Source: Brevundimonas sp. (GTDB taxonomy: Bacteria > Pseudomonadota > Alphaproteobacteria > Caulobacterales > Caulobacteraceae). From it: a DNA stretch of 64,000 nt. The stretch's first letter is position 1, and each line of letters opens with the position of its first letter. The notes under the pieces were generated by a model. It worked only from the letters and a program-made list of their open reading frames with translations, did not search any database and had not been told where the DNA came from. Made by a program: the position numbers and the translations under genes. The stretch covers positions 50,325 through 114,324 of the forward strand of contig NZ_JBIIOP010000009.1 of the NCBI RefSeq assembly GCF_044336875.1. The letters run 5' to 3'. This document shows, piece after piece, positions 25,544-44,028 of the stretch.

Positions 25544-25565
25544 CGTCGGGTTGAAGCGAGAGAAG

Positions 25566-26939
25566 ATGATGACCCAGGCCTCCGAAGACCGTTTCACCCT
25601 GAGCCGCCGCGCGGTCCTGGGCTCGACCGCCGCCCTGGCCCTGACGGCCGGTGCGGCGTCGGCCGCCAGCCGGACGGCGCCGAGCCGCGGCTTTGTCACG
25701 CGTGAGGGAATCGGACTGAAACTGGACGGAAAGCCGTACCGGTTCGTGGGCGCCAACGCCTGGTATCTGGCCTGGCTGGGCGCCGACGCCGACTATGGGG
25801 ATCATGGGCGTCTGACGCGCGAGCTGGACGCCCTGGCGGCGGACGGCGTGACCAATCTGCGGGTCGGCGCCTCGGCCGAGCTCTCGCCGCTGAACAACTC
25901 GGTCCGTCCCGCCTTCCGGGACCAGACCGCAGCCTATAACGAGACCCTGCTCGCCGGCCTGGACCGCACCCTGGTCGAGATGGGGCGGCGCGACATGAAG
26001 GCGGTCCTGTATCTGACCAACTTCTGGGAATGGTCGGGCGGGATGATGACCTATCTCTCCTGGGTCAACGGCGGTCGCTACATCAACATGAACGACCCGG
26101 CCCATCCGTGGCCCGAGTTCGCCGACTTCAACGCCGACTTCTATCGCAGCGATGAGGCTGTCGCCCTCTATCACGACTATGTCCGGGCCGTGGTCGGCCG
26201 GACCAACACGATCAGCGGCATGGCCTATGCCGAGGATCCGACCATCATGGCCTGGCAACTGGCCAATGAGCCGCGCGCAGGCGGCGGCGCGCAGGTCGCC
26301 CTGGACAATCTTCCCGCCTTCTACGCCTGGATCAACGGCACGGCCCGGCTGATCAAGTCGCTGGCGCCACGCCAGCTGGTCTCGACCGGGGGGGAGGGGC
26401 TGAAGGGCTCGTCCGAGCGCGCCGAGGTGGTGATGGAAAGCTGCCGTTCGCCCGACATCGACTATCTGACCGCCCATATCTGGCCGGGCAACTGGGGCTG
26501 GCTGGACCGCAAGGACATGGCGGGAACCGACGCCCGCGCCCGCGCCATGGCCATCGACTATGTGAACCAGCATGTCGGCTTCGCCCGCCAACTCGACAAG
26601 CCGCTGGTGATCGAGGAATTCGGCTATCCCCGCGACGGCGATTTGTATGATCCGTCCGTGCCCACGGTCCTGCGCGACGGCTTCTACGCCGACATCCATG
26701 CCGCAGTGCTGGCGGATGCGCGGGCGGGCGGACCTCTGGCCGGCTCGAACTTCTGGGCCTGGAACGGCGAGGGCCGCACACGCAATCCCGACTTCCGCTT
26801 CCACGACGGCGACAGCGCCTGGCTGGGCGATCCGCCGCACGAGCCCCAGGGCTGGTACGGCGTGTTCGACAGCGATCGTTCGACCCGGACCCTGGTCCGC
26901 GATCAGGCGAGAGCCCTGGCCGAAATCCTCGCGGGCTGA
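25566..26939 (+). CDS. GH5 beta-mannosidase/mannanase (GH5_7, Cellvibrio Man5A-like), Tat-exported
   Basis: SRRAVL; GANAWY, NFWEWSGG, WQLANEPR (acid/base), VIEEFG (nucleophile), GDPPHEPQGWYGVFD C-terminal loop. Confidence 0.9.
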   Translation: MMTQASEDRFTLSRRAVLGSTAALALTAGAASAASRTAPSRGFVTREGIGLKLDGKPYRFVGANAWYLAWLGADADYGDHGRLTRELDALAADGVTNLRVGASAELSPLNNSVRPAFRDQTAAYNETLLAGLDRTLVEMGRRDMKAVLYLTNFWEWSGGMMTYLSWVNGGRYINMNDPAHPWPEFADFNADFYRSDEAVALYHDYVRAVVGRTNTISGMAYAEDPTIMAWQLANEPRAGGGAQVALDNLPAFYAWINGTARLIKSLAPRQLVSTGGEGLKGSSERAEVVMESCRSPDIDYLTAHIWPGNWGWLDRKDMAGTDARARAMAIDYVNQHVGFARQLDKPLVIEEFGYPRDGDLYDPSVPTVLRDGFYADIHAAVLADARAGGPLAGSNFWAWNGEGRTRNPDFRFHDGDSAWLGDPPHEPQGWYGVFDSDRSTRTLVRDQARALAEILAG

Positions 26940-27431: not shown

Positions 27432-27445
27432 GGTAACCGGTGTCT
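27432..27445. promoter_or_regulatory. LacI operator (hexuronate regulon) upstream of uxaC
   Basis: GGTAACCGGTGTCT, reverse complement AGACACCGGTTACC. Confidence 0.8.
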
Positions 27446-27529
27446 TTTTCTGCGCGACGTAGTATCTGGTCCCGATCAGACTCGCGAGGCGATCCAACGC
27501 CTCCGCATCGAGGATCAGTGAAGGACGTC

Positions 27530-28945
27530 ATGGCTCATCCGCTCAAGCTCAATCCCGACCGCCTGTTCCCGGCGGACGCCGACACGCGCGCCGTGGCGCG
27601 CCGCCTCTATGCGGAGATCAAGGGCCTGCCGATCATCAGCCCGCACGGCCATACGGATCCCGGCTGGTTCGCGGGGAACGAAAACTTCGCCAATCCGGCC
27701 GAACTGCTGATCACGCCCGACCACTATGTCTTCCGCATGCTGCATTCGCAGGGGATGGCGATGGAGGATCTGGGCGTGCCGCGTGCTGACGGCGGCCCGG
27801 TCGAGACCGATCCACGCGTGATCTGGCGCCGCTTCGCCGAGAACTATCACCTGTTCCGCGGCACCCCGTCGCGCATGTGGCACGACTGGGTCTATGCCGA
27901 GGCCTTCGGCATCGACGTGCGCCTGTCGGCCGAGACGGCCGACCACTATTACGACGTCATCGACGCCGCCCTGAAGACCGACGCCTTCAAGCCGCGCGCC
28001 CTGTTCGAACGCTACAATATCGAGGTCCTGACCACGACCGAGAGCCCGCTCGATACGCTGGAGCACCACAAGATCATCGCCGCCTCGGGCTGGAAGGGTC
28101 GGGTTCTGACCGCCTATCGCCCGGACCCGGTGCTGGATCCCGACTACGAGGGCTTCCGCGACAATCTGAAGATCCTGGCCGAACAGACCGGCCGCGATAC
28201 GCTGAGCTGGGACGGATACCTGCTGGCCCTGCGCGACCGCCGCGCCTTCTTCATCGAAATGGGCGCCACCTCGACCGACCACGGCCATCCGACCGCCTTC
28301 ACCGCCGACCTGTCCAAGGGCGAGGCGGAGGCCCTGTTCAAGCGGGTCTCGACCGCTCCGGCCAGCGCCGCCGACGCCGAACTGTTCCGCGGCCAGATGC
28401 TGACCGAAATGGCCGCCATGTCGGTCGAGGACGGTCTGGTGATGCAGCTTCACCCCGGCAGCTTCCGCAACCATTCGGCCACGGTCTTCAACCGTTTCGG
28501 CCGCGACAAGGGCTGCGATATCCCGACCCAGACCGACTATGTCCGGGCGTTGAAGCCGCTGTTGGACCGGTTCGGTTCGGACAGCCGTCTGTCCCTGATC
28601 CTCTTCACCCTGGACGAGACCAGCTACAGCCGCGAACTGGCGCCCCTGGCCGGTCACTATCCGGCGCTGAAACTCGGCCCCAGCTGGTGGTTCCACGACA
28701 GCCCCGAGGGGATGCGTCGCTTCCGCGAACAGGTCACCGAGACGGCCGGCTTCTACAACACCGTCGGCTTCAACGACGACACCCGCGCCTTTCTGTCCAT
28801 CCCGGCCCGCCACGACGTGGCCCGGCGCATGGACTGCGGCTTCCTGGCGAAGATGGTGGTCGAGCACCGGATGGAAGAGGACGAGGCCCACGACCTGGCC
28901 CACGCCCTGACCTATGGTCTGGTCAAGGCGGCCTACAAGCTGTGA
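27530..28945 (+). CDS. uxaC: Uronate isomerase
   Basis: PIISPHGHTDP, DHYVFRML, MQLHPG, GPSWWFHDSPEG, GFNDDTRAF..IPARHDVARR. Confidence 0.96.
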   Translation: MAHPLKLNPDRLFPADADTRAVARRLYAEIKGLPIISPHGHTDPGWFAGNENFANPAELLITPDHYVFRMLHSQGMAMEDLGVPRADGGPVETDPRVIWRRFAENYHLFRGTPSRMWHDWVYAEAFGIDVRLSAETADHYYDVIDAALKTDAFKPRALFERYNIEVLTTTESPLDTLEHHKIIAASGWKGRVLTAYRPDPVLDPDYEGFRDNLKILAEQTGRDTLSWDGYLLALRDRRAFFIEMGATSTDHGHPTAFTADLSKGEAEALFKRVSTAPASAADAELFRGQMLTEMAAMSVEDGLVMQLHPGSFRNHSATVFNRFGRDKGCDIPTQTDYVRALKPLLDRFGSDSRLSLILFTLDETSYSRELAPLAGHYPALKLGPSWWFHDSPEGMRRFREQVTETAGFYNTVGFNDDTRAFLSIPARHDVARRMDCGFLAKMVVEHRMEEDEAHDLAHALTYGLVKAAYKL

Positions 28946-30426
28946 CCCGGCTGTCTAATGCAGCCCTGCAGGGCCTGCCCGCAGAGGTCGCCGTTCCCCA
29001 CTATGACCGCGCCCAGGTGAAGACCGGCGTGGTCCATCTGGGCATCGGCGCCTTCCACCGCGCCCACCAGGCGGTTGTGTTCGACGATGCGATCAAGGCC
29101 GGCGACCTGCGCTGGGGCGTGCTGGGCGCCTCGCTGCGGTCGCCGGACGTGCGCGATCAGCTGAACCCGCAGGACGGCCTCTACACCCTGGTCGTCCGTG
29201 ACGGTTCGGACGAGCATCTGCGGGTGATCGGCGCTGGTCGCGGCGTCCTGGTCGGACCGGAAGACCCTGCCGCCCTGGTCGCCGCCATGGCCGACGCGGA
29301 CGTCCACATCGTCACCCTGACCGTGACCGAGAAGGGCTATCGCCTCGACCCCGCCACCGGCGACCTGCTGCTGGATGATCCCGAGGTGGCGGCCGATCTG
29401 GCCGACATCGCTTCGCCCCGCACCGCGCCGGGCTTCATCGTCGCGGCGCTGCAGGCCCGCAAGGCGGCGGGTTTGAAACCCTTCACCGTCGTCAGCTGCG
29501 ACAACATCCCCCACAACGGCAAGCGTATCCGCGCCGGGGTCGTCGCCATGGCCCGCCATGTCGACCCGGCCCTGGCCGGCTGGATCGAGGCCGAAGGCGC
29601 CTTCCCCCAGACCATGATCGACCGGATCGTTCCGGCGACCATTGCCGACGACATCACCCGCCTGACCGCCCGACTGGGCGTCGAGGACCAGGGCATGGTC
29701 AAGGCCGAACCCTTCACCCAGTGGGTGATCGAGGACCGGTTCGCCGGCGAGCGGCCGGACTTTGCGGCGCTCGGCGTGCAACTGACCGACGCGGTCGAGC
29801 CGTGGGAGGACGCCAAGCTGCGCCTGCTGAACGGCGCCCATTCGGCCGTCGCCTATCTGGGCGCCCTGTCAGGGCATGAGCATGTCCACGAGGCCGTCGC
29901 CGTCCCCGCCTTCCGCGCCTATGTCGAAGCCTTGTGGGACGAGGCCCAGACGACGCTGAACCCGCCGCCGGGTCTGGACATCCCCGCCTATCGCGACGCG
30001 CTGATGGCGCGGTTCTCCAACGCGGCCCTGATGCACCGGACGCGGCAGATCGCCATGGACGGATCACAGAAACTGCCCCAGCGGCTGCTGGCCGGCGCCG
30101 CCGAACGCCTGGCGGCCGGGCCAGATTCTAAGGGAATGGGGATAGACGCCATCGCTCTTGGCGTCGCCGCCTGGATGAAATGGCAGTCGGGCGTGACCGA
30201 AAGCGGCGAGATCTTCGTCGTCGACGATCCCCTGGCGGCGAAGACCGCCGAACTTCTGGCCGGCAGCGACAATGACCAGGCGCGGGTTTCGGCCCTGCTG
30301 ACCCTGTCCGCCGTCTTCCCGCCTGCGCTCGCCGCTGACGACCGGTTCGCCGTAGCGGTCACGGGCGCCTATCTGTCGCTGAGCCGCAACGGCGCGGTCG
30401 AGGCCGCCCGTGCGGTGACGGCGTAG
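28942..30426 (+). CDS. uxuB: Mannitol dehydrogenase-family reductase (UxuB-type; fructuronate/tagaturonate reductase)
   Basis: GTGA overlap with the uxaC stop; VHLGIGAFHRAHQ, TVTEKGY, SCDN, MIDRIVP, KLRLLNGAHS. Confidence 0.88.
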   Translation: MTRLSNAALQGLPAEVAVPHYDRAQVKTGVVHLGIGAFHRAHQAVVFDDAIKAGDLRWGVLGASLRSPDVRDQLNPQDGLYTLVVRDGSDEHLRVIGAGRGVLVGPEDPAALVAAMADADVHIVTLTVTEKGYRLDPATGDLLLDDPEVAADLADIASPRTAPGFIVAALQARKAAGLKPFTVVSCDNIPHNGKRIRAGVVAMARHVDPALAGWIEAEGAFPQTMIDRIVPATIADDITRLTARLGVEDQGMVKAEPFTQWVIEDRFAGERPDFAALGVQLTDAVEPWEDAKLRLLNGAHSAVAYLGALSGHEHVHEAVAVPAFRAYVEALWDEAQTTLNPPPGLDIPAYRDALMARFSNAALMHRTRQIAMDGSQKLPQRLLAGAAERLAAGPDSKGMGIDAIALGVAAWMKWQSGVTESGEIFVVDDPLAAKTAELLAGSDNDQARVSALLTLSAVFPPALAADDRFAVAVTGAYLSLSRNGAVEAARAVTA

Positions 30427-35023: not shown

Positions 35024-36682
35024 TCAGGCGCCGAGCGCTTCGATCAGGTCGCCCATGTTTCGGATGAAGACCGAGGTCGAGACGCCCTCGACCGGGAAGT
35101 CGGTCTGATAGGGGGAGGTGTCCCACAGATCGCCGACGCGGGTCATCTGGTACTCGCCGCCGGTGACTGCGGTAGGCGAGGGGCCCTTGTAGGGGTTGGA
35201 GGTCGTGGTCAGGGGCGTGGCCCAGTAGCCGCGCGCATTGAGGGCGGAGATCAGATCGGCCGCACGATTGGCGTGCGGCGCGGTCGGGCGGCGGGCGTCG
35301 CTGGACATGTCCCAGACGTCCACGTCCTGCAGGGTGAAATATTTCGGCAGGTTCAGCGAGCCGGGACGGGCCTTCAGGGGCGAGCCACGGGTGGCCTCCT
35401 CGACCGGCAGGGCCGACAGGCGGGCGTATTCGGCGCGCAGGGCCGGGGTGTCGACGTTGCGGAACGAGCCGTAGTGGACGATCAGATTGGTCGGATTGTC
35501 GTCGGCGTAATACTGGCCGTTGGCGATGTTGGATCCGCGCCGGTGGATGTAGATCGGGGTGTTGGCCCCTTCCAGGATGAAGGTCGGGTGGGTGCGGCCC
35601 GGCGTGTTCAGCGGCGGTTTGGTCGCCACCTGGTCCAGCCAGTCCATCGCCTCGGGCAGGCGCGCCAGATATTTGCGGTCGCCGGTCAGGCGGTAGAAGC
35701 CCAGCATCGACTTGATGTTGGTGCCGGTGGCGTGGGTGACGAAGGCCTGGGGCTCGATGGTGCGGGCGCCGGCGGGCTTCAGGCTGTCGGGGAAATGCTG
35801 CAGGCCCCAGGCCGGCTGCGGCTGCGGCTGCTGGGTCTTCACGAAAATGTCCATGCCGCGGTGGATGGCGTCCAGCACCTTGGCGTCGCCCCGGCCGTTC
35901 CGCGCCAGGCCGTGGTAGGCGTAGATCAGGAACTCCAGGTTCTCGCCGGCCACATCGTCGTTGAAGGTGATGTAGGGGGTGTAGTCCTCATGCCCGTGCA
36001 GGCCGCCGTTCTCGACGAAGGGATAGCGCTGCGGCCAGCCGCCGTTCGGATACTGGCTCTCCAGCACGAAGCTGATCGCCTTGTTCAGCGGCGCCAGATA
36101 TTTGCGGTCCTTCTTCTCCAGATAGACGCGCAGCAGCAGCTGCGACGCCTCGGCCGTGCCGGCGTCGTCGAAGGTGGCGTTGCCGTAGTAGTGGTGGAAT
36201 TCCTCCAGCCGCCAGGCGTTGGCGGCGACCGTGCCGTACCACTGTTTCAGCGACTCCTCGCCGGCGGTGTCGATGACATAGTTCCAGCCGCCCAGCGGGT
36301 GCTGGCCCTTGACCAGGGCGTCGGCGGCCTTCTTGGCGGCCTCGTAGTAATAGTCGTCGCCGGTGGCGTGATAGGCGTCCATGAACAGGTGGCCCACCGT
36401 CGCCGTGCCGGGGGGCTGGACCCAGATCATGGTCGGGCCGGCTTCCAGTTCGCCCCAGCGGCGCGAGAAGTCGGGCAGATACTGCCAGACATAACCGCCC
36501 TCGACAGCGGCCTCCTCGCTCATGAACCGGGCGGCGCGCTTCATCGCATCCAGGACGGCGGCGCGGTCGGGCGAGGTCATGCCTCCAGGGTTTTGGGCAA
36601 GGGCGGGGCCGGAGGCGGCGACGAAGGTGGCGGCGGCGCCGGCGGCCAGCAGGGCGCGGCGGTTCATGGACGTGACGGACAT
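35024..36682 (-). CDS. Pectate lyase, PL10 family, Tat-exported
   Basis: NRRALL; ATFDDAGT, NGGWPQRYP, ITFNDD, AWGLQH..LKPAGARTIEP match PL10 motifs. ATG 36682 has GGAG upstream. Confidence 0.85.
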   Translation of the reverse strand: MSVTSMNRRALLAAGAAATFVAASGPALAQNPGGMTSPDRAAVLDAMKRAARFMSEEAAVEGGYVWQYLPDFSRRWGELEAGPTMIWVQPPGTATVGHLFMDAYHATGDDYYYEAAKKAADALVKGQHPLGGWNYVIDTAGEESLKQWYGTVAANAWRLEEFHHYYGNATFDDAGTAEASQLLLRVYLEKKDRKYLAPLNKAISFVLESQYPNGGWPQRYPFVENGGLHGHEDYTPYITFNDDVAGENLEFLIYAYHGLARNGRGDAKVLDAIHRGMDIFVKTQQPQPQPAWGLQHFPDSLKPAGARTIEPQAFVTHATGTNIKSMLGFYRLTGDRKYLARLPEAMDWLDQVATKPPLNTPGRTHPTFILEGANTPIYIHRRGSNIANGQYYADDNPTNLIVHYGSFRNVDTPALRAEYARLSALPVEEATRGSPLKARPGSLNLPKYFTLQDVDVWDMSSDARRPTAPHANRAADLISALNARGYWATPLTTTSNPYKGPSPTAVTGGEYQMTRVGDLWDTSPYQTDFPVEGVSTSVFIRNMGDLIEALGA

Positions 36683-36751
36683 GGAAACTCCTGGGGTGAC
36701 CTCTCTCGGACGGTTCTTGGCGACCGTTTCGAGGTTGTACTCAAGCATGAG

Positions 36752-36765
36752 TGACACCGGTTTCC
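36752..36765. promoter_or_regulatory. LacI operator upstream of the PL10 gene
   Basis: TGACACCGGTTTCC. Confidence 0.82.
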
Positions 36766-36780
36766 TAGCCCTGATCGGGC

Positions 36781-36816
36781 AAAGAAAAAGGCCGCACGGA
36801 TCGCTCCATGCGGCCT
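36781..36816 (-). terminator. Intrinsic terminator after kdgK
   Basis: AGGCCGCA / TGCGGCCT stem with a T-run on the minus strand. Confidence 0.7.
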
Positions 36817-36838
36817 CCACAATGTCTGGATCAAACGC

Positions 36839-37882
36839 CTAGCGTCGGATGTCGAAACCGCCGTCGCCCATGGCCGCGCGCACCTCGTCGGCGGTGAACA
36901 GGTTGAAGTCGCCGGGCACCGAATGTTTCAGACCGGCGGCGGCCAGACCGAAGTCCAGCGCCTCCTGATCCGTCCATCCGCTCCATAGGCCGAACAGCAC
37001 CCCCGAGGCGAAGGCGTCGCCGCCCCCGACCCGGTCAACCACGCCCGCCATGTGGATGGCCTCGGCGTTGGTCTCGATCACGCCGTCCCCATCACGCGTC
37101 AGCATGACGGCGGACAGGGCCTGGTCCGCGACGCTCTCCTGAACCCGCAGGGTGCAGGCGATGCGTTGCAGGCGAGGGAAGGCGGCGAAGGCGGCCTTGG
37201 CGGCTTCGCGGCGACGCACGGCGGGATCGGCGCTGTCGAACCGGGTCTTCAGCACCAGGGCGAAGTCGCGGTCGTCGGCGAAGGCGACCGTGGCGCCCGA
37301 CAGCATCTTGCCCAGGGTGGTCGGCGGATCGCCGGCCCATTGCTCCCACAGCTTGCCGCGGAAATTGCCGTCATAGCTGACCTTCACCCCCTTGCGGACA
37401 GCCGCCTCGATGATCGCCACGGCGGCGGCCGAGCCGTTCGGACCCGTCGCCGGGGTCACGCCCGAGGCGTGCAGCCATTCGACGCCGTCCAGCAACTGGT
37501 CCCAGTCGAAGGCCGTGTCGACGTGGTCGACGAAGGCCGAGCCGGCGCGGTCGTAGAGGACTTCCGACGGCCGCCGCACGGCGCCGGGCGTCAGGAAATA
37601 CAGGCCCATCCGGCCGGGCTTGAACACGACCGGGGACGTGTCGACCCCGTGCTTGCGCACCTCGTCGCGGACGCCCCGGCCCAGGGCGTTGTCGGCCAGG
37701 ACCGTCGCCATGCTGGTCGGCGCGCCGAAACGGGCCAGGGACACGGCGACGTTCGCCTCGGCCCCCGCCGGACGGATGGTCAGGGCGGGGGACTGCATCA
37801 GCAGTTCGTTGTCGTTGGGCGAGAACCGCAGCAGCATCTCGCCGAAGCAAAGGATGCGTTTGGAGGAGGCGTTCTGAGACAT
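36839..37882 (-). CDS. kdgK: 2-keto-3-deoxygluconate kinase (PfkB)
   Basis: CFGEMLLR, AGAEANVA, VLYDRAGSA, SYDGNFRGKLW, DRVGGGDAF. Confidence 0.92.
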   Translation of the reverse strand: MSQNASSKRILCFGEMLLRFSPNDNELLMQSPALTIRPAGAEANVAVSLARFGAPTSMATVLADNALGRGVRDEVRKHGVDTSPVVFKPGRMGLYFLTPGAVRRPSEVLYDRAGSAFVDHVDTAFDWDQLLDGVEWLHASGVTPATGPNGSAAAVAIIEAAVRKGVKVSYDGNFRGKLWEQWAGDPPTTLGKMLSGATVAFADDRDFALVLKTRFDSADPAVRRREAAKAAFAAFPRLQRIACTLRVQESVADQALSAVMLTRDGDGVIETNAEAIHMAGVVDRVGGGDAFASGVLFGLWSGWTDQEALDFGLAAAGLKHSVPGDFNLFTADEVRAAMGDGGFDIRR

Positions 37883-37957: not shown

Positions 37958-38066
37958 CCGTCATCCTCGCCCTCGTGGCGAGGATCCAGACTCCCGGTGT
38001 GTCCGCAGGTCGCCCTGACTTTGAAACCGGGAGTCTGGATCCTCGGGACAAGCCCGAGGATGACGG
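37958..38066. repeat. 109-bp CIR/REP-like palindromic element with paired GANTC sites
   Basis: CCGTCATCCTCGCCCTCGTGGCGAGGATCCAGACTCCCGGT...ACCGGGAGTCTGGATCCTCGGGACAAGCCCGAGGATGACGG. Contains a 20-bp perfect inner stem. Confidence 0.85.
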
Positions 38067-38080
38067 AAACGGGGTTGGGG

Positions 38081-38839
38081 TCAGCGCGCCTGCCAGCCGC
38101 CGTCGACCGGCAGGATGGCGCCTTGCACATAGTCCGAGGCCCGGCTGGCCAGGAAGACGGCCGCGCCGCCCAGATCCGACGGCTCGCCCCAGCGACCGGC
38201 CGGGATACGGCCCAGGATCTCGGCCGAACGCACCGGGTCCTCGCGCAGGGCCTGGGTGTTGGCCGTGGCGAAATAACCGGGGGCGATGGCGTTGGCGGTG
38301 ATGCGGTGGGGCGCCCACTCGTTGGCCATCAGCTTGGTCAGGCCGGCGACGCCCGACTTGGACGCGGTGTAGGAAGGCACGCGGATGCCGCCCTGGAAGG
38401 ACAGCATCGAGGCGATGTTGATGATCTTGCCGCCGTCGCCCTGTTTGATGAACAGGCGGGCGACCGCCTGGCTCATGAAGAAGACCGTCTTCAGGTTGAT
38501 GTTCATCACCAGGTCCCAGTCGGCCTCGGTGAAGTCCACGGCGTCGGCGCGGCGGATCAGGCCGGCGTTGTTCACCAGGATGTCGATCCGTCCCATGGCG
38601 TCCAGGGCTTCCTGAACCACGCGCTCGACCGGCTCGATCGAGGTCAGGTCGGCGCTGATCGCGTGGGCGCGGCGGCCCAGGGCGGTGACCTTGGCGACAG
38701 TGTCGTCGGACTCCGACAGGGCGACCGAGACGATGTCGGCGCCGGCCTCGGCCAGGGCCAGGGCGATGCCTTGGCCCAGACCCGTGTTGCCGCCGGTGAC
38801 CAGGGCGACCTTGCCGGTCAGGTCGAACGGATTGCTCAT
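38081..38839 (-). CDS. kduD: 2-dehydro-3-deoxy-D-gluconate 5-dehydrogenase
   Basis: TGGNTGLGQG, NNAGLIRR, IASMLSFQGGIRVPSYTASKS, RIPAGRWG. Confidence 0.96.
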   Translation of the reverse strand: MSNPFDLTGKVALVTGGNTGLGQGIALALAEAGADIVSVALSESDDTVAKVTALGRRAHAISADLTSIEPVERVVQEALDAMGRIDILVNNAGLIRRADAVDFTEADWDLVMNINLKTVFFMSQAVARLFIKQGDGGKIINIASMLSFQGGIRVPSYTASKSGVAGLTKLMANEWAPHRITANAIAPGYFATANTQALREDPVRSAEILGRIPAGRWGEPSDLGGAAVFLASRASDYVQGAILPVDGGWQAR

Positions 38840-38861
38840 GAATTTCCTCCTGTTATCCTGA

Positions 38862-39719
38862 TTACTTCAACTGGCAGACGTCGAGCTTGTGCATGTCGGT
38901 ATAGTCGAGATTCTCGCCGCCCATGCCCCAGATGAAGGTGTAGTTCGAAGTGCCTGCGCCCATGTGGATCGACCACGGCGGGCAGATCACGGCCTCGCCG
39001 TCGGCGACGACGATGTGGCGCGCCTTGTCCGGCTCGCCCATGAAGTGGAAGGCGCGGTCGGTCTCGCTCAGGCCGAAATAGAGATAGGCCTCGGAGCGAC
39101 GATCGTGGATGTGCGGCGGCATGGTGTTCCACACCGAGCCGGGCTTCAGCACGGTCACGCCCAGCAGCAGCTGGCAGGACTTCACCTTGGCCGGGACCAC
39201 ATACTGGTAGATGGTCCGTTCGTTGGACGTCTCCAGCGCGCCCATCTCCAGCGGCACGGCCTCGTCGATCGAGATCTTGGTCAGGACGTGGCGGGCGTGG
39301 GCCGGGGTGGCGACCAGATAGAATTTCGCCGGTTCGGCCGGGTTCTTCGAGGTGAAGCCGACCTCGGTCGAGCCCATAGGCACATAGAGGCCGTCGCGGA
39401 AGCCCAGGTCGATGGTCTCGCCGTCGACGGTGATCGAACCCGCGCCGCCGATATTGACCACGCCCAGCTCGCGGGCCTGCAGGAAGGCCGCGCCGGCCAG
39501 CGACGGCGGCTCGGACTGGGTCGGCAGGGTCAGGGCGGTTTCTGTCGGGGTGGCGCCGCCGATGATCATCCGCTCGTGGTGCGAATAGTTCAGGCTGATC
39601 CTGCCGGGAACGAACAGGCCCTCGATCAGGTAGCGGTCGCGCAGCTGCTGGTTCGTGGCGCCGTCCATCATGTCGGGATGGGTGGCCTGATAGACTTTGT
39701 CGTACATGGGGTCGTACAT
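38862..39719 (-). CDS. kduI: 4-deoxy-L-threo-5-hexosulose-uronate ketol-isomerase
   Basis: [57 protein letters not shown]-like motif, WGMGGEN. Confidence 0.96.
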
Positions 39720-39789
39720 GCGGGTCTCCCTTCGAACTCGCGGGGCGAGCCACGGGGGACGGATCTTGTGTCCGTCCTTCGGTGGACTA

Positions 39790-39803
39790 GGTAACCGGTG
39801 TCA
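39790..39803. promoter_or_regulatory. LacI operator between divergent kduI and the RpiB-fold isomerase
   Basis: GGTAACCGGTGTCA, reverse complement TGACACCGGTTACC. Confidence 0.85.
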
Positions 39804-39881
39804 TATTATGATGCAATGGATTAGACCATAATCGCCGACATCTGCTCGGCATCGCTCCGTCCCCGTCTTGAGGATTCCCCC

Positions 39882-40544
39882 ATGAAGATCGCTCTCATCA
39901 TCGAAAACAGCCAGGCCGCCAAAAGCGAGACGGTGCACGCCGCGCTGACCGCCGTCGCGGAACCCCTGGGCCATGAAGTCTTCCACTATGGAATGTATGC
40001 GGCCGAGGACAAGGCGTCGCTGACCTATGTGATGAACGGCGTCCTGACCGCCATCCTGCTGAACTCGGGCGCGGCCGATTTCGTCGTCACCGGCTGCGGC
40101 ACGGGCATGGGCTCGATGCTGGCCTGCAACAGCATGCCGGGCGTCTTCTGCGGCCTGGTCATCGACCCGACCGACGCCTTCCTGTTCGGCCAGATCAATG
40201 ACGGCAACGCCATCTCCATGCCCTACGCCAAGGGCTTCGGCTGGGCGGCGGAACTGAACCTGCAGGACGTCTATCGCAAGCTGTTCGAGGGCGAGCGCGG
40301 CCTGGGCTATCCGAAGGAACGCGCCGAGATCATGCGCAAGAACCGCGGCGTGCTCAGCGGCCTGAAGGCCGTCACCTGCCACGACATGCTGACCGTGCTG
40401 AAGACGATGGACCAGGACCTGCTGAAGGCGGCCATCGCCGGCGAGCGCTTCCAGGACTACTTCTTCGCCAACGCCACCGACGAAGGCATCCGCGACTATC
40501 TGAAGGGTGTTCTCAGCGCCAAGCCCGCGCTGGAAATGGCCTAA
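39882..40544 (+). CDS. RpiB/LacA/LacB-fold isomerase, DhuI-like
   Basis: MKIALIIENSQAAK, AILLNSGAADFVVTGCGTG, AKGFGWAAELNL and GYPKER match streptococcal DhuI as recalled. Confidence 0.85.
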   Translation: MKIALIIENSQAAKSETVHAALTAVAEPLGHEVFHYGMYAAEDKASLTYVMNGVLTAILLNSGAADFVVTGCGTGMGSMLACNSMPGVFCGLVIDPTDAFLFGQINDGNAISMPYAKGFGWAAELNLQDVYRKLFEGERGLGYPKERAEIMRKNRGVLSGLKAVTCHDMLTVLKTMDQDLLKAAIAGERFQDYFFANATDEGIRDYLKGVLSAKPALEMA

Positions 40545-40608: not shown

Positions 40609-41658
40609 TCAGGCCGCGTCGATCGCGGACTTGCGCACGACCAGGGCCGGACGGACCTCGTCCTGCTGCAGCTTGGCGGGGTCGACGCCGCGCATCGGCG
40701 CCAGCAGCTTCTCCGCCGCCATCCGTCCCATGTCGCGAATCGGCAAGCGCACCGAGGTCAGGTTCGGCCAGACCCGAGCCGCCATCGGCAGATCGTCGAA
40801 ACCGACCACGGACAGGTCGCGCGGAAGCTCCAGACCGCGTTCGCGGGCGGCCTGCATCACCCCGATGGCCATGTCGTCGTTCAGGGTGAAGATGGCGGTC
40901 GGCGGCGTCGCCAGCGACAGCAGGGCGTGCCCGGCCTCGACCCCCGATTCGAACGTATAGGCGCCCTTGAAGTCATAGGCGGGGTCCAGCGGAATGCCGC
41001 GCTCGGTCAGGGCGTCCAGGAAGCCCTGGCCCCGCACCGCCGACGACCGGAACAGGTCCGGACCGCGCACCAGGCCGATCCGCCTGTGGCCCAGATCCGC
41101 CAGATGGTTCGCCGCCTCGGCCGCCCCGACGCCGTCGTTGGTCACGACCATCGACTGGGGCTCGTCCAGCGCCACCGAGGCGATGCGGACATAGGGGCAG
41201 TCCAGATCCTGCAGCAGTTCGATGACCTTTTCGTCCTCGGACACCGACGGCGGCATGATGACGCCGAACAGCCGCTGGCGCTCGACGAAGCCCTTGATGT
41301 CTTCCAGCAGGGTAGGGGAGTTGCGGTTGCACGGGTGCACGACCAGCTCCAGGCCCGAGCCCTTCAGCGCATCCAGAACCCCCTGCTGCATGTTGACCAC
41401 ATAGGTCGGGCTGGGGTTGTCGTAGATCAGACCGACCAGGAAGGACCGGCGGAAGGCCAGGCCGCGCGCCTGAGGGTCCGGGGTGAAGCCCAGGGTCTTG
41501 ATGACCGCATTGACCCGTTCGCGCGTGTCCTCACGCACGAAGGGCGACTGGTTGATCACCCGCGAGACGGTCTTCTTGGAGACTTTCGCCTCTCGGGCGA
41601 CGTCGTTGATCGTAGCCCGCTTGGCCGGCTTGCCGGTGCGCGGATCGTCTTGAGCCAA
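40609..41658 (-). CDS. LacI-family repressor (hexuronate regulator, HumR-like)
   Basis: ATINDVAREAKVSKKTVSRVIN HTH, hinge ARGL, VVGFDD, LTSVRLPIRDMG. Confidence 0.93.
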   Translation of the reverse strand: MAQDDPRTGKPAKRATINDVAREAKVSKKTVSRVINQSPFVREDTRERVNAVIKTLGFTPDPQARGLAFRRSFLVGLIYDNPSPTYVVNMQQGVLDALKGSGLELVVHPCNRNSPTLLEDIKGFVERQRLFGVIMPPSVSEDEKVIELLQDLDCPYVRIASVALDEPQSMVVTNDGVGAAEAANHLADLGHRRIGLVRGPDLFRSSAVRGQGFLDALTERGIPLDPAYDFKGAYTFESGVEAGHALLSLATPPTAIFTLNDDMAIGVMQAARERGLELPRDLSVVGFDDLPMAARVWPNLTSVRLPIRDMGRMAAEKLLAPMRGVDPAKLQQDEVRPALVVRKSAIDAA

Positions 41659-41737: not shown

Positions 41738-41751
41738 TGACACCGGTTTCC
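41738..41751. promoter_or_regulatory. LacI operator overlapping a TTGACA -35 element
   Basis: TGACACCGGTTTCC; TTGACA at 41737-41742. Confidence 0.85.
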
Positions 41752-41827: not shown

Positions 41828-42655
41828 ATGAGCGCGACGCCCGTCACACCGTCCGGCGTCTCCGCCGAGGCGACGGCGATCGCGGAGCAATTCGTCGCCG
41901 CCCGCCTCGCCGCCCGCTGCACGCCCGACTATCCGGGCCGCATTCCCGAGAGCATGGCCGAATCCTACGCCATTCAGGACATCGCCATCGGCCTGTTCCC
42001 CGACGAGGTCGTGGGCTGGAAGGTCGGCGGCGTGCCGCCCGCTCTGCAGCCGAAACTGGGCGTCCATCGCCTGGCCGGCGCCATCTTCGCCCGCAACGTC
42101 TGGCCTGCGCCGGGCGACACGGTCGTGCCCCTGCCCGAGATCGAGGGCGGGTTCGCCGCCGTCGAATCGGAATTCATCGCCCGCATCGGCGCAGACGCCG
42201 ATCCGGCCAAGACCGACTGGACCGTCGAGGAGGCCAAGGCCGCCGTCGACAAGGTCTTCATCGGCGTGGAGCTGGCCGGCAGTCCCCTGTCGGCCATCAA
42301 CGACCTTGGCTCGGCTGTCGTGGCCTCGGACTTCGGCAACAACGGCGGCCTGATGGTCGGGCCGGAAGTCGAGAACTGGCGCGACGTGCTGGACGACATC
42401 CAGGTCGAGACCGTCATCAACGGCGCCAGCGTCGGCACGGGCGGCTCGCCCTCGCTTCAGGGCGGGGCGATGGAATCCGTCCGCTTTCTGCTGGAACACT
42501 GCGCCCGGTGGGGCCGTCCGCTGAAGGCGGGCACGCTTGTTTCGACCGGCGCGGTAACCGGTGTCCATCGGGTCCACGCGGGCGACGAGGCCGTGTGCAT
42601 CTTCAAGGGTATTGCTGAACTCCATTGTTCGGTCGTTCGGGCCGAGATCAAGTAA
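41828..42655 (+). CDS. FAH-superfamily 2-keto-4-pentenoate hydratase-like protein
   Basis: YAIQD, GWKVG, VESEF, VELA, SDFGNNGG, LKAGTLVSTGA (MhpD-like pattern). Substrate unknown. Confidence 0.82.
   Translation: MSATPVTPSGVSAEATAIAEQFVAARLAARCTPDYPGRIPESMAESYAIQDIAIGLFPDEVVGWKVGGVPPALQPKLGVHRLAGAIFARNVWPAPGDTVVPLPEIEGGFAAVESEFIARIGADADPAKTDWTVEEAKAAVDKVFIGVELAGSPLSAINDLGSAVVASDFGNNGGLMVGPEVENWRDVLDDIQVETVINGASVGTGGSPSLQGGAMESVRFLLEHCARWGRPLKAGTLVSTGAVTGVHRVHAGDEAVCIFKGIAELHCSVVRAEIK
42553..42566. promoter_or_regulatory. Intragenic LacI operator upstream of exuT
   Basis: GGTAACCGGTGTCC inside the hydratase 3' end, 176 nt before the exuT ATG. Confidence 0.65.
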
Positions 42656-42741: not shown

Positions 42742-44028
42742 ATGACTGACGCTTCGAGCGCGGCGCCGATCGAGATCAAGGCGCCGTCACCGGGCAAATA
42801 CCGGTGGGTGATCATGTGGCTGCTGTTCGCGGCCATGGTCATCAACTACGTCGACCGGCAGATGATCGGCTTCCTCAAGCCGACCCTGTCCGCCGAGTTC
42901 GGCTGGTCCGAGACCGACTATGCCGACATCGTCTTCTGGTTCCAGGCCTCCTACGCCGTGGCCTATCTGCTGTGGGGCCGGATCATGGACAAGGTCGGGG
43001 CCCGCTGGGGTCTCGGCGTCGCCTTCGGCATCTGGCAGATCGGCCATATCCTGCACGGCGCGGCCCGCGACCTGTCGCACTTCATGATGGCGCGGATGGT
43101 TCTGGGCGTCGGCGAGGCCGGCGGCTTCCCCGGCGGCATCAAGGCGGTCGCCGAGTGGTTCCCCAAGAAGGAACGCGCCCTGGCCACCGGTCTGTTCAAC
43201 GCCGGCACCAATATCGGCGCCATCGTCACCCCGCTGATCGTGCCCGGCCTGGTCCTGGCCTTCGGCTGGGAGATGGCCTTCGTCATCACCGGCGCCCTGG
43301 GTCTGATCTGGCTGCCGATCTGGCTGCTGGTCTATCGTCGTCCGCGCGAGCAGAAGAACCTGTCGGCGACCGAACTGGCCTATATCGAGCAGGATCCGGC
43401 CGACGTCGTCGAAAAGGTCAAATGGACCAAACTGCTGGGCGTTCGCGAAACCTGGGCCTACGCCCTGGGCAAGTTTCTGATCGACCCGATCTGGTGGATG
43501 TTCCTGTTCTGGCTGCCCGACTTCCTGGGCAAGACCTACGGCCTGGACCTGAAGAGCTTCGGCCCGCCGCTGGTGGCCATCTATCTGTTGAGCGACGTGG
43601 GTTCTGTCGGCGGCGGCTGGCTGTCCTCGCGCTTCATGCATCGCGGCATGAGCGTCAACAACGCCCGCAAGATCACCATGCTGATCTGCGCCCTGTGCGC
43701 CGTGCCGGTGATGTTCGCCGCCGAAGCGTCGAACCTGTGGGTCGCGGTCGGCATCATCGGCCTGGCCACCGCAGCCCACCAGGGCTTCTCGGCCAACCTC
43801 TACGCCTTCCCCGGCGACGTCTTCCCGCGCTCGGCCGTGGGCTCGGTCGTCGGCATCGGCGGGATGCTGGGCGCCATCGGCGGCATGGCCATGGCCAAAT
43901 ACGCCGGCTACGTCCTGGAGCAGATCGGCACCTATACGCCCATCTTCATCGTCGCGGGCTCGGCCTATCTGATCGCCCTGCTGGTGGTCCACCTGCTGTC
44001 GCCGAAATACGCGCCGGCAAAGGTCTGA
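42742..44028 (+). CDS. exuT: Hexuronate MFS transporter
   Basis: INYVDRQ, LGVGEAGGFPGGIKAVAEWFPKKERALATGLFNAGTNIGA, DPIWWMFLFWLP, AAHQGFSANL. Confidence 0.93.
   Translation: MTDASSAAPIEIKAPSPGKYRWVIMWLLFAAMVINYVDRQMIGFLKPTLSAEFGWSETDYADIVFWFQASYAVAYLLWGRIMDKVGARWGLGVAFGIWQIGHILHGAARDLSHFMMARMVLGVGEAGGFPGGIKAVAEWFPKKERALATGLFNAGTNIGAIVTPLIVPGLVLAFGWEMAFVITGALGLIWLPIWLLVYRRPREQKNLSATELAYIEQDPADVVEKVKWTKLLGVRETWAYALGKFLIDPIWWMFLFWLPDFLGKTYGLDLKSFGPPLVAIYLLSDVGSVGGGWLSSRFMHRGMSVNNARKITMLICALCAVPVMFAAEASNLWVAVGIIGLATAAHQGFSANLYAFPGDVFPRSAVGSVVGIGGMLGAIGGMAMAKYAGYVLEQIGTYTPIFIVAGSAYLIALLVVHLLSPKYAPAKV

Follow-up and report, generated by a model that had tools for sequence, protein, structure and literature searches.

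The 64,000-nucleotide stretch of Brevundimonas sp. DNA analysed here (the window) contains a cluster of pectin and uronate genes in which a cupin-type kduI and a gene for an RpiB-fold, DhuI-like protein lie divergently on either side of a 162-bp spacer (Table 1). The kduI gene leads a kduI-kduD-kdgK(-lyase) string, and the dhuI-like gene appears to be monocistronic and convergent with the gene of a LacI-family repressor, which is syntenic with kduI/kduD or dhuI in Caulobacterales, Sphingomonadales and Xanthomonadales. The placement of kdgK next to kduD is conserved in related loci, as is that of the FAH-fold gene next to the transporter gene, the FAH-fold gene being a conserved member of the regulon. 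The nearest structure to its product in the PDB is 2-keto-4-pentenoate hydratase (1SV6), at merely 1e-8; the idea that it could be a non-homologous KdgF is weakened because the pectin locus on plasmid pNL2 of Novosphingobium aromaticivorans carries both an FAH-like gene and a small cupin protein. The PL10-like protein scores 96 bits against TIGR02474, under the cut-off of 190, and its real start is probably near position 36682, where a Tat-type signal (MSVTSMNRRALLAAGAAA) begins. The kduD-kdgK spacer, about 25 bp in the nearest relatives, is here enlarged by a palindromic insertion that lies within the operon and outside the enzyme pair, with a computed fold as single-stranded DNA of -42 kcal/mol (z = -7.7).

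Table 1. Features of the pectin/galacturonate genes in the Brevundimonas window
Feature	Position	Strand	Description
Operator copy	27432-27445	+	GGTAACCGGTGTCT; head of uxaC, reductase gene, uxaA
uxaC	27440-28945		Pfam match
Reductase gene	28942-30426		Fructuronate-reductase family, 398 bits
uxaA	30619-32118		Pfam match
PL10-like gene	35024-36820	-	(alpha/alpha)6 pectate-lyase-family protein; Pfam Pec_lyase 98 bits
Operator copy	36752-36765		Within N-terminal extension of the mechanical ORF of the PL10-like protein
kdgK-like gene	36839-37882	-	PfkB sugar kinase (KDG kinase); Pfam PfkB 99 bits
Palindromic insertion, ~110 bp	37958-38066		kduD-kdgK spacer; perfect 19-nt arms at 37979-37997 and 38027-38045
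kduD	38081-38839	-	2-dehydro-3-deoxy-D-gluconate 5-dehydrogenase (DKII -> KDG); TIGR01832 409 bits, cut-off 339
kduI	38862-39719	-	Cupin, Zn-dependent DKI ketol-isomerase; NF002091 390.7 bits, cut-off 250
kduI/dhuI spacer	39720-39881		162 bp
Predicted -35	39783-39788	+	TGGACT
LacI-type operator (14-mer)	39790-39803	+	GGTAACCGGTGTCA; kduI/dhuI control region, common to both genes
Predicted -10	39807-39812	+	TATGAT
dhuI-like gene	39882-40544	+	220 aa, RpiB-fold; NF006753/PRK09273 321.3 bits, cut-off 137
lacI	40609-41658	-	LacI-family repressor; Pfam LacI + Peripla_BP_3
Operator copy	41738-41751	-	GGAAACCGGTGTCA; between lacI and FAH-like/MFS genes
FAH-fold gene	41828-42655	+	MhpD-like protein; Pfam FAA_hydrolase
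Operator-like copy	42553-42566		Near ExuT-like MFS transporter gene
MFS transporter gene	42742-44028	+	ExuT-like uronate transporter; MFS_1 212 bits, TIGR00893 250 bits

KduI matches the structures 1YWK (2e-87), 7E4S (KduI of L. rhamnosus, 5e-78) and 1XRU. Its alignment to 7E4S was read against the residues shown by mutagenesis to be essential in the L. rhamnosus enzyme (PMC10792219), and, with positions hand-counted from the printed alignment, all four metal ligands (His198, His200, Glu205, His248) and all nine mutationally essential residues (Arg163, Ile165, Thr184, Thr194, His200, Arg203, Tyr207, Met262, Tyr269) are conserved. The window thus resembles the KduI/KduD systems of Dickeya, E. 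coli and L. rhamnosus (1XRU, 7E4S) in its matches to the equivalog models, its kduI-kduD order and its retention of the metal site and essential residues, and differs from them in having a LacI-family regulator rather than KdgR (IclR) and in uptake through TonB-dependent receptors and an MFS transporter. By orthology to the characterised enzymes, KduI would be expected to be catalytically active.

The DhuI-like protein is identical to Streptococcus agalactiae DhuI (gbs1892; 4U8E) at 125 of 206 positions without gaps (60.7%, E = 1e-86), and is 82% identical (1e-114) to the N. aromaticivorans crystal structure 3C5Y. The match to NF006753 runs end to end, residues 1-211 lying on profile positions 1-210 of 211, and two Pfam domains are recognized, LacAB_rpiB (PF02502) in residues 3-115 and DUF3666 (PF12408) in residues 164-210. 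Judged from these alignments, which bear out the original prediction that the RpiB-fold gene is DhuI-like, the protein is orthologous to streptococcal DhuI over its full length and, by orthology to that characterised enzyme, would catalyse the conversion of DKI to DKII. Cys72-Gly-Thr74-Gly aligns with the CGTG motif of RpiB; when a complete RpiB domain was sought, the LacAB_rpiB match covered profile positions 1-106 of 138, an end point that we take to omit the C-terminal phosphate-binding part of RpiB. Scores fall under the RpiB/LacB family cut-offs (TIGR01120, 20.2 vs 138.65; NF004051, 33.8 vs 135; TIGR01119, 30.9 vs 312.55), and public databases name such proteins "RpiB/LacA/LacB family sugar-phosphate isomerase" or "ribose 5-phosphate isomerase RpiB". 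The nearest relatives are in B. huaxiensis and B. vesicularis (96%), and the nearest loci are those of Brevundimonas, on which ground a sphingomonad origin, suggested by the abundance of TonB receptors nearby and by the 3C5Y match, is rejected. Identity across orders is 80-88%, for which slow evolution is a better explanation than recent transfer: no other protein of the module is as well conserved, the window and pNL2 sharing 80% identity in DhuI and 41-66% in the neighbouring proteins. Some genomes of Caulobacter, Sphingobium and Brevundimonas also carry near-identical copies in unrelated gene neighbourhoods.

The operator in the spacer is 71 nt away from the start codon (ATG) of kduI and 79 nt from that of dhuI, and sits between the -35 and -10 elements of the only sigma-70-like promoter predicted in the spacer, which is directed towards dhuI. 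Its core, GGWAACCGGTGTC, occurs five times in the window and in none of 100 shuffles (0 expected), and all five copies are placed at pectin or uronate genes, a canonical uxaC being in the same regulon as kduI and dhuI. Of 80 related loci, 70 have the exact 14-mer no more than 260 nt upstream of dhuI, and it occurs four times in the pNL2 pectin locus. The operator does not vary among the aligned upstream regions, with or without kduI present, and two "orphan" dhuI copies in Croceibacterium retain it. The site has the features of a LacI operator, being an imperfect palindrome with a central CG that lies near a promoter, recurs before regulon genes and is conserved across species. The recurrent core marks a pectin/galacturonate regulon, with the adjacent LacI protein as the presumed binder and repression as its presumed effect. 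Coordinates and profile scores thus agree with the original picture of cupin-type kduI (with kduD) and the RpiB-fold gene diverging around one operator at 39790. kduD lies within about 1 kb of dhuI in the window, and in most of the 80 related loci it adjoins dhuI or is separated from it by kduI only.

Several described systems can be set beside this arrangement. S. agalactiae DhuI (4U8E, 4U8F), which according to the account in PMC12838403 isomerises DKI (Maruyama et al. 2015, J Biol Chem 290:6281), shares with the window the NF006753/PRK09273 family, the RpiB-like domain with DUF3666, and an SDR reductase and a KDG kinase as partners, but belongs to a glycosaminoglycan cluster (dhuD-dhuI) with PTS import and no KduI, whereas the window's gene is part of a pectin regulon, accompanied by KduD, a LacI operator, TonB-dependent receptors and KduI as a neighbour; the streptococcal protein also has GCGAG where the window's has GCGTG. 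The structure 3C5Y (JCSG, no primary citation) is that of the N. aromaticivorans homologue Saro_3514, encoded on pNL2 in a locus with the same LacI regulator, an identical 14-mer operator, kduD, kdgK, the FAH-like gene, MFS, carboxylesterase and pectate lyase genes and TonB-dependent receptors. That locus differs in being plasmid-borne and in its co-directional lacI-dhuI-kduD-kdgK order ("type G"), and no kduI was found within the 14.6-kb stretch of it that was examined. A survey (Nishimura et al. 2025, PMC12838403) describes the dhuI-kduD arrangement for Sphingomonadaceae and Erythrobacteraceae, tandem kduI-kduD-dhuI in Pseudomonadota, kduI-dhuD-dhuI in Lachnospiraceae and, for B. subvibrioides, kduD and dhuI in a divergent cluster; the complete genome of that species has no kduI and one dhuI, together with ogl and urgh (Table S1 of that survey); divergent types, 6 of 568 clusters, were detected but omitted from its analysis. 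Among the matches listed, tandem kduI-kduD-dhuI clusters were also found here in Xanthomonas and Luteimonas (loci L128, L147 and L148). They likewise combine two non-homologous isomerases with one reductase, but their three genes are co-directional and their DhuI is 50-52% identical to that of the window, where dhuI diverges from kduI-kduD and has the control region in common with them. The original suggestion that the family is functionally undescribed in an alphaproteobacterial pectin pathway is only partly right: no enzymology of a proteobacterial DhuI was found in the literature, but gene clusters of this kind appear in the 2025 survey (PMC12838403), and the crystallised homologue 3C5Y comes from the pNL2 pectin locus.

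The gene content of related loci varies even within the genus. Among the matches listed, 40 Brevundimonas loci are syntenic with the window: 21 hold both isomerase genes, 15 dhuI only, two kduI only (L082 and L083) and two dhuI with a kduI remnant, which is an internally deleted copy in one locus (L030) and an N-terminal fragment in the other (L062). These counts come from samples that are biased, because each was chosen for carrying dhuI or kduI. On a simple neighbour-joining tree of two proteins (LacI and KduD) the three states are interleaved, and the state with both genes is present in each major clade. The dhuI-only loci retain the remaining pectin cluster, with a TonB-dependent receptor, a pectate-lyase-like gene, a TRAP transporter and kdgK, and synteny is kept down to KduI identities of 62-65%. 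Where the two genes co-occur both are under purifying selection, with dN/dS of 0.147 for dhuI and 0.170 for kduI, values similar to those of lacI (0.14) and kdgK (0.19). A strain that lacks kduI at this locus may still have it elsewhere in the genome: Brevundimonas sp. EYE_349, which has no kduI beside dhuI in its PL10/PaeX/MFS locus (L004), carries a kduI-kduD-kdgK string on a second contig (L159), where it adjoins genes for a GH88/GH105-type hydrolase and a GDSL esterase. A degenerate 32-nt kduI pattern that covers 32 of 32 Brevundimonas kduI copies was found, among the matches listed, in genome contigs of many phyla. In two metatranscriptomes, where DNA carry-over is possible, a contig about 91% identical to the window spans kdgK, kduD, kduI and dhuI, ending at the dhuI stop codon with lacI uncovered, and weakly suggests expression of these four genes.

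The original prediction held that keeping both genes points to a division of labour or to a novel reaction. The occurrence of all three states and of kduI remnants in syntenic loci speaks against this, and the genes therefore look interchangeable, although purifying selection on both may leave room for conditional specialisation. The reading that we favour, with a probability of roughly 0.6, is that KduI and DhuI overlap in function within a LacI-repressed pectin/galacturonate regulon, DhuI being the more constant partner in the genus and KduI an accessory one, repeatedly lost at the locus. Two analogous enzymes, the Zn-cupin KduI and a metal-independent, Cys-based RpiB-fold DhuI, encoded divergently from one operator-bearing control region, would each be able to convert DKI to DKII; KduD would then reduce DKII to KDG, and KdgK would phosphorylate it. 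DhuI alone appears sufficient in the B. subvibrioides genome and in the pNL2 locus, and dispensability of KduI at the Brevundimonas locus is the best reading of its losses. What speaks against strict redundancy is that several clades have long kept both genes together under purifying selection. The case would be one of enzyme redundancy and adds no new pathway, the co-occurrence of kduI and dhuI having been published in 2025 (PMC12838403).

Such co-retention, and the presence of both genes in each major clade, would also be expected if the enzymes divided labour on the same substrate according to conditions, a KduI in need of a bound divalent metal alternating with a DhuI dependent on a reactive cysteine, or the two differing in kinetics (affinity vs capacity). 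Metal scarcity would disable KduI and oxidative stress DhuI, each enzyme covering for the other. Polygalacturonate chelates cations; in the more specific and still more tentative form of this proposal, KduI would be limiting on pectate, which binds divalent cations strongly, and DhuI would carry the flux there, and under oxidative stress DhuI would fail and KduI take over. EDTA does inhibit KduI (PMC10792219), and crystals of 3C5Y have the corresponding cysteine in oxidised form (PMC3212906). If correct, this form would explain long co-retention in several Brevundimonas clades, and would account for gene loss where the niche of a lineage is free of one of the two stresses. We nevertheless regard a conditional division as unlikely, given that kduI has been lost many times with the rest of the locus unchanged, that many species and the pNL2 locus use DhuI alone, and that the single common operator gives no hint of differential regulation.

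A division by substrate source is improbable. The two enzymes would then serve homogalacturonan and rhamnogalacturonan/glucuronan modules, each with its own ring form or isomer as substrate, or the substrate of DhuI would be another uronate-derived ketose; the separate contexts of dhuI and kduI in EYE_349 fit this, as does the link drawn in the 2025 survey between cluster types and different DKI-producing enzymes (PMC12838403). Unsaturated GlcA and unsaturated GalA nevertheless yield the same DKI (PMC10792219), both genes share one control region and one locus in the window, and DhuI-only loci are likewise of the pectin type. We give still less credence to the view that DhuI is the sole real DKI isomerase and that KduI persists because of a side activity, for instance the slow turnover of galacturonate or glucuronate reported for the E. 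coli enzyme in osmotic stress. PMC3578941 does report that E. coli KduI facilitates hexuronate conversion, and kduI is the dispensable partner in Brevundimonas; but the KduI active site is identical to those of characterised DKI isomerases at each tested residue, the kduI-only Brevundimonas loci exist among the matches listed, and the regulon already has its canonical uxaC. That the RpiB-fold protein is a ribose-5-phosphate or galactose-6-phosphate isomerase merely neighbouring the kdu genes is scarcely credible, its public names, its CGTG motif and its near-identical copies in unrelated contexts being outweighed by scores of 20-34 bits against RpiB/LacB cut-offs of 135-312, the truncated LacAB_rpiB match, 61% identity to an enzyme shown to isomerise DKI, and the association with kduD and with the operator, which even the Croceibacterium orphans keep.

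Analogous, non-homologous enzymes for a single step usually replace one another between lineages. Under the favoured reading of overlapping function, the Brevundimonas locus would show such replacement under way inside one genus, the same cluster and operator being found with both genes, with either one, or with a decaying copy. Brevundimonas is therefore well suited, as a natural system, to studying why both analogues persist and which of them can be dispensed with. For Caulobacterales and Sphingomonadales there is a further consequence, since under RpiB-type public names for DhuI a name-based reconstruction of their pectin pathways would show a gap at the DKI isomerase wherever kduI is absent.

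Gene calling places kduD, kduI and the RpiB-fold gene where the original prediction had put them. The RpiB-fold protein is matched end to end by NF006753/PRK09273 from NCBIfam (321 bits, cut-off 137), and the RpiB and LacB equivalog models score 20–34 bits, below their cut-offs of 135–312. Its nearest relatives, at 96%, are in Brevundimonas huaxiensis and B. vesicularis, which identifies the window as Brevundimonas (Caulobacteraceae) DNA. Among PDB sequences it aligns with 3C5Y from Novosphingobium aromaticivorans (1e-114, 82% identity), gap-free with Streptococcus agalactiae DhuI (4U8E/4U8F, "gbs1892"; 1e-86, 125/206 identical), and with 2PPW (53% identity) and 3ONO; true RpiB structures match only at E ~1e-6 and only over the N-terminal half. 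The reactive-cysteine motif is retained (Cys72-Gly-Thr74-Gly, aligned to the CGTG of RpiB) and different sequence takes the place of the RpiB domain's C-terminal third. Judged by these alignments, the gene encodes an orthologue of DhuI rather than an RpiB. Residues 70–76 contain GCGTG in the window, 3C5Y, 2PPW and 3ONO versus GCGAG in the characterised S. agalactiae enzyme, so that the threonine that partners the catalytic cysteine in RpiB would not be needed for DhuI activity. In public records the family goes by "RpiB/LacA/LacB family sugar-phosphate isomerase", "ribose 5-phosphate isomerase RpiB" or "hypothetical protein", the last being also the title of the equivalog NF006753 itself; the characterisation of one member as DhuI dates from 2015, as relayed in PMC12838403. 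Mutation of nine residues abolishes the activity of Lacticaseibacillus rhamnosus KduI (PMC10792219); on alignment with that enzyme (7E4S), all nine sites and all four metal ligands are conserved in the window KduI, which by this comparison is as orthodox as DhuI.

The single operator proposed for the divergent kduI and dhuI genes is real: their 162-bp spacer holds GGTAACCGGTGTCA at 39790-39803, a site whose core recurs in the window and which is conserved across related loci. This imperfect palindrome, centred on CCGG, fits the usual LacI-family operator pattern, and it lies between the -35 and -10 elements of the spacer's sole predicted sigma-70-like promoter, on the dhuI strand. The window has five copies of the core, GGWAACCGGTGTC; 100 shuffles gave none. 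In 70 of 80 related loci the exact 14-mer precedes dhuI by at most 260 nt; it also stands upstream of kduI in dhuI-less Brevundimonas loci and in Stenotrophomonas, Xanthomonas and Luteimonas, and the pNL2 plasmid of N. aromaticivorans has four copies in its pectin locus (L281 4116, 5756, 6926, 12783). The operator and its recurrence thus place dhuI firmly within a pectin regulon.

Features of the window, by position
Feature	Position	Strand	Remarks
xyloglucan-type utilisation locus (resemblance)	5459-26939		separate from the pectin block
475-aa ORF	25512-26939		no match in Pfam or NCBIfam
uxaC, fructuronate/tagaturonate-reductase-family gene, uxaA	27.4-32.1 kb		part of pectin/galacturonate block
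operator core	27432		ahead of uxaC
TonB-dependent receptor, Tat-exported PL10-like lyase-family protein, kdgK			in this order between uxaA and focal genes
operator core	36753		ahead of PL10-like gene
palindromic element, ~110 bp	37958-38066		inside kduD-kdgK spacer
kduD	38081-38839	-	TIGR01832, 409 bits
kduI	38862-39719	-	NF002091, 391 bits
operator core	39790		focal kduI/dhuI spacer
RpiB-fold gene (dhuI), 220 aa	39882-40544	+	truncated LacAB_rpiB domain + DUF3666
LacI-family regulator, FAH-fold protein, ExuT-like MFS transporter, GH43, then PaeX-like acetylesterase, carboxylesterase, second TonB-dependent receptor			beyond focal genes, all on the same side
operator core	41739		lacI/FAH spacer
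FAH-fold, MhpD-like protein	41828-42655	+	
operator core	42553		ahead of MFS gene
weaker operator copies, two	48461, 48495		between carboxylesterase and second TonB-dependent receptor

The mechanical ORF starts of uxaC (27440) and the PL10-like gene (N-terminal region at 36682-36820) overlap or enclose operator copies, and the true starts are probably further downstream; the PL10-like protein probably begins with the Met at ~36682, which precedes a Tat-type signal (RRALLAAGAAA). The best structural match of the MhpD-like protein is 2-keto-4-pentenoate hydratase, at only 1e-8, and we know of no role assigned to it in uronate catabolism; its gene adjoins the uronate transporter behind the same operator in Brevundimonas, pNL2 (L281 3274-4098), Lysobacter, Asticcacaulis and others, and one locus (L142) reads kduI-kduD-FAH-kdgK. 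The palindromic element has perfect 19-nt arms and outer 12-nt arms and folds as single-stranded DNA at -42 kcal/mol (z = -7.7); the spacer that holds it is ~25 bp in the closest relatives. Since its arms match many different metatranscriptome contigs, it is a multi-copy REP/MITE-like repeat inserted within the operon. The xyloglucan-type locus contains GH97, a Trp-halogenase-like gene beside a TonB-dependent receptor, a GH35/42-like gene, GH31, a SASA-type esterase, an alpha-L-fucosidase, a BNR-repeat protein and GH3.

In N. aromaticivorans the crystallised homologue (3C5Y) sits in lacI-dhuI-kduD-kdgK, flanked by uxaA, an FAH-like gene, an MFS gene, a carboxylesterase, a small cupin, a pectate lyase and TonB-dependent receptors; the annotation of this 14.6-kb stretch shows no kduI. 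The module of LacI regulator, 14-mer operator and pectin genes is nearly unchanged in Caulobacterales, Sphingomonadales (pNL2) and Xanthomonadales, and DhuI is its most conserved protein (window versus pNL2: 80% for DhuI, 41–66% for its neighbours).

The window proteins were mapped by tblastn on 80 loci selected via DhuI and 80 via KduI, among the matches listed. The constant core in Brevundimonas is kduD and dhuI, divergent, then lacI; just 23 of the 80 loci selected through DhuI have kduI between the first two genes, and it is missing there even at 96% DhuI identity (L004). Forty syntenic "pectin-type" Brevundimonas loci comprise 21 with both genes, 15 with dhuI only, two with kduI only (L082, L083) and two with dhuI and a kduI remnant, which is either internally deleted for residues 47-162 (L030) or an N-terminal fragment (L062). 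The states are interleaved on a LacI+KduD neighbour-joining tree, with "both" in every major clade, and the dhuI-only loci retain lyase, kinase, transporter and esterase genes. The states are most simply explained by an ancestor with both genes, followed by repeated loss of kduI and, occasionally, of dhuI. Brevundimonas has another, more divergent locus type, and this too is dhuI-only, with a TonB-dependent receptor, a pectate-lyase-like gene, a TRAP transporter and kdgK.

A strain without kduI at the locus may still have it elsewhere in the genome. Brevundimonas sp. EYE_349 has no kduI beside dhuI (L004, Seq_11) and carries kduI-kduD-kdgK on another contig (Seq_2, L159), adjoining a GH88/GH105-type hydrolase and a GDSL esterase. 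This genome has two kduD-kdgK sets, one with dhuI (the PL10/PaeX/MFS locus) and the other with kduI, each polysaccharide module having its own isomerase type. For B. subvibrioides ATCC 15264 the published genome-level counts are kduI 0, dhuI 1, ogl 1 and urgh 1, with one divergent kduD/dhuI cluster ("Hc"; PMC12838403 Table S1).

These data favour KduI and DhuI as two analogous enzymes of overlapping function under one repressor, with DhuI the more constant partner in Brevundimonas and KduI dispensable at this locus. A 4.5-kb contig ~91% identical to the window, from two metatranscriptomic RNA-Seq runs, covers kdgK, kduD, kduI and dhuI and stops ~20 nt past the dhuI stop codon, without coverage of lacI; it is consistent with co-expression, weakly so because contig depth is flat and DNA carry-over is possible. 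In loci with both genes, purifying selection acts on each (median NG86 dN/dS 0.147 for dhuI and 0.170 for kduI; lacI 0.14, kdgK 0.19), and KduI identity goes down to 62–65% with synteny intact. Strict redundancy does not explain such selection on both genes across deep splits, so that conditional specialisation stays a live rival, either as KduI metal dependence versus an oxidisable cysteine in DhuI (seen oxidised in the homologue 3C5Y; PMC3212906) or as kinetic complementarity. The division of labour that the original prediction read from co-retention finds no support as first put and may persist in that conditional form, the both, either and remnant states favouring overlap. That the RpiB-fold protein is purely a sugar-phosphate isomerase is unlikely: near-identical copies do occur in unrelated contexts in some Caulobacter, Sphingobium and two Brevundimonas genomes, but two "orphan" copies in Croceibacterium retain the operator. 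Copies at 83–88% identity lie away from uronate genes in seven loci (L023, L024, L037, L054, L072, L078, L079), with neighbours including FMN reductase, an FGGY kinase, ABC transporters and a nagA/nagB cluster; two of them (L023, L024) have a variant palindrome, AGACACCGGTATCA, upstream.

In their survey of 3,550 genomes, Nishimura et al. 2025 (mSphere, PMC12838403) report dhuI-kduD clusters only from Sphingomonadaceae and Erythrobacteraceae; 40 Pseudomonadota have kduD-dhuI clusters, in 13 cases as tandem kduI-kduD-dhuI, and Lachnospiraceae have kduI-dhuD-dhuI; divergent arrangements (6 of 568 clusters) were detected and left unanalysed. Since some of these clusters hold both isomerases, co-occurrence of KduI and DhuI is already described, and the novelty first claimed for the family holds in part: no enzymological work on a proteobacterial DhuI came to light. 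The present analysis adds the gene order seen in Brevundimonas, where dhuI and kduI-kduD diverge from a single operator, the conservation of this operator and its regulon in three orders, and the polymorphism within one genus, in which loci hold both isomerases, either one, or a remnant.
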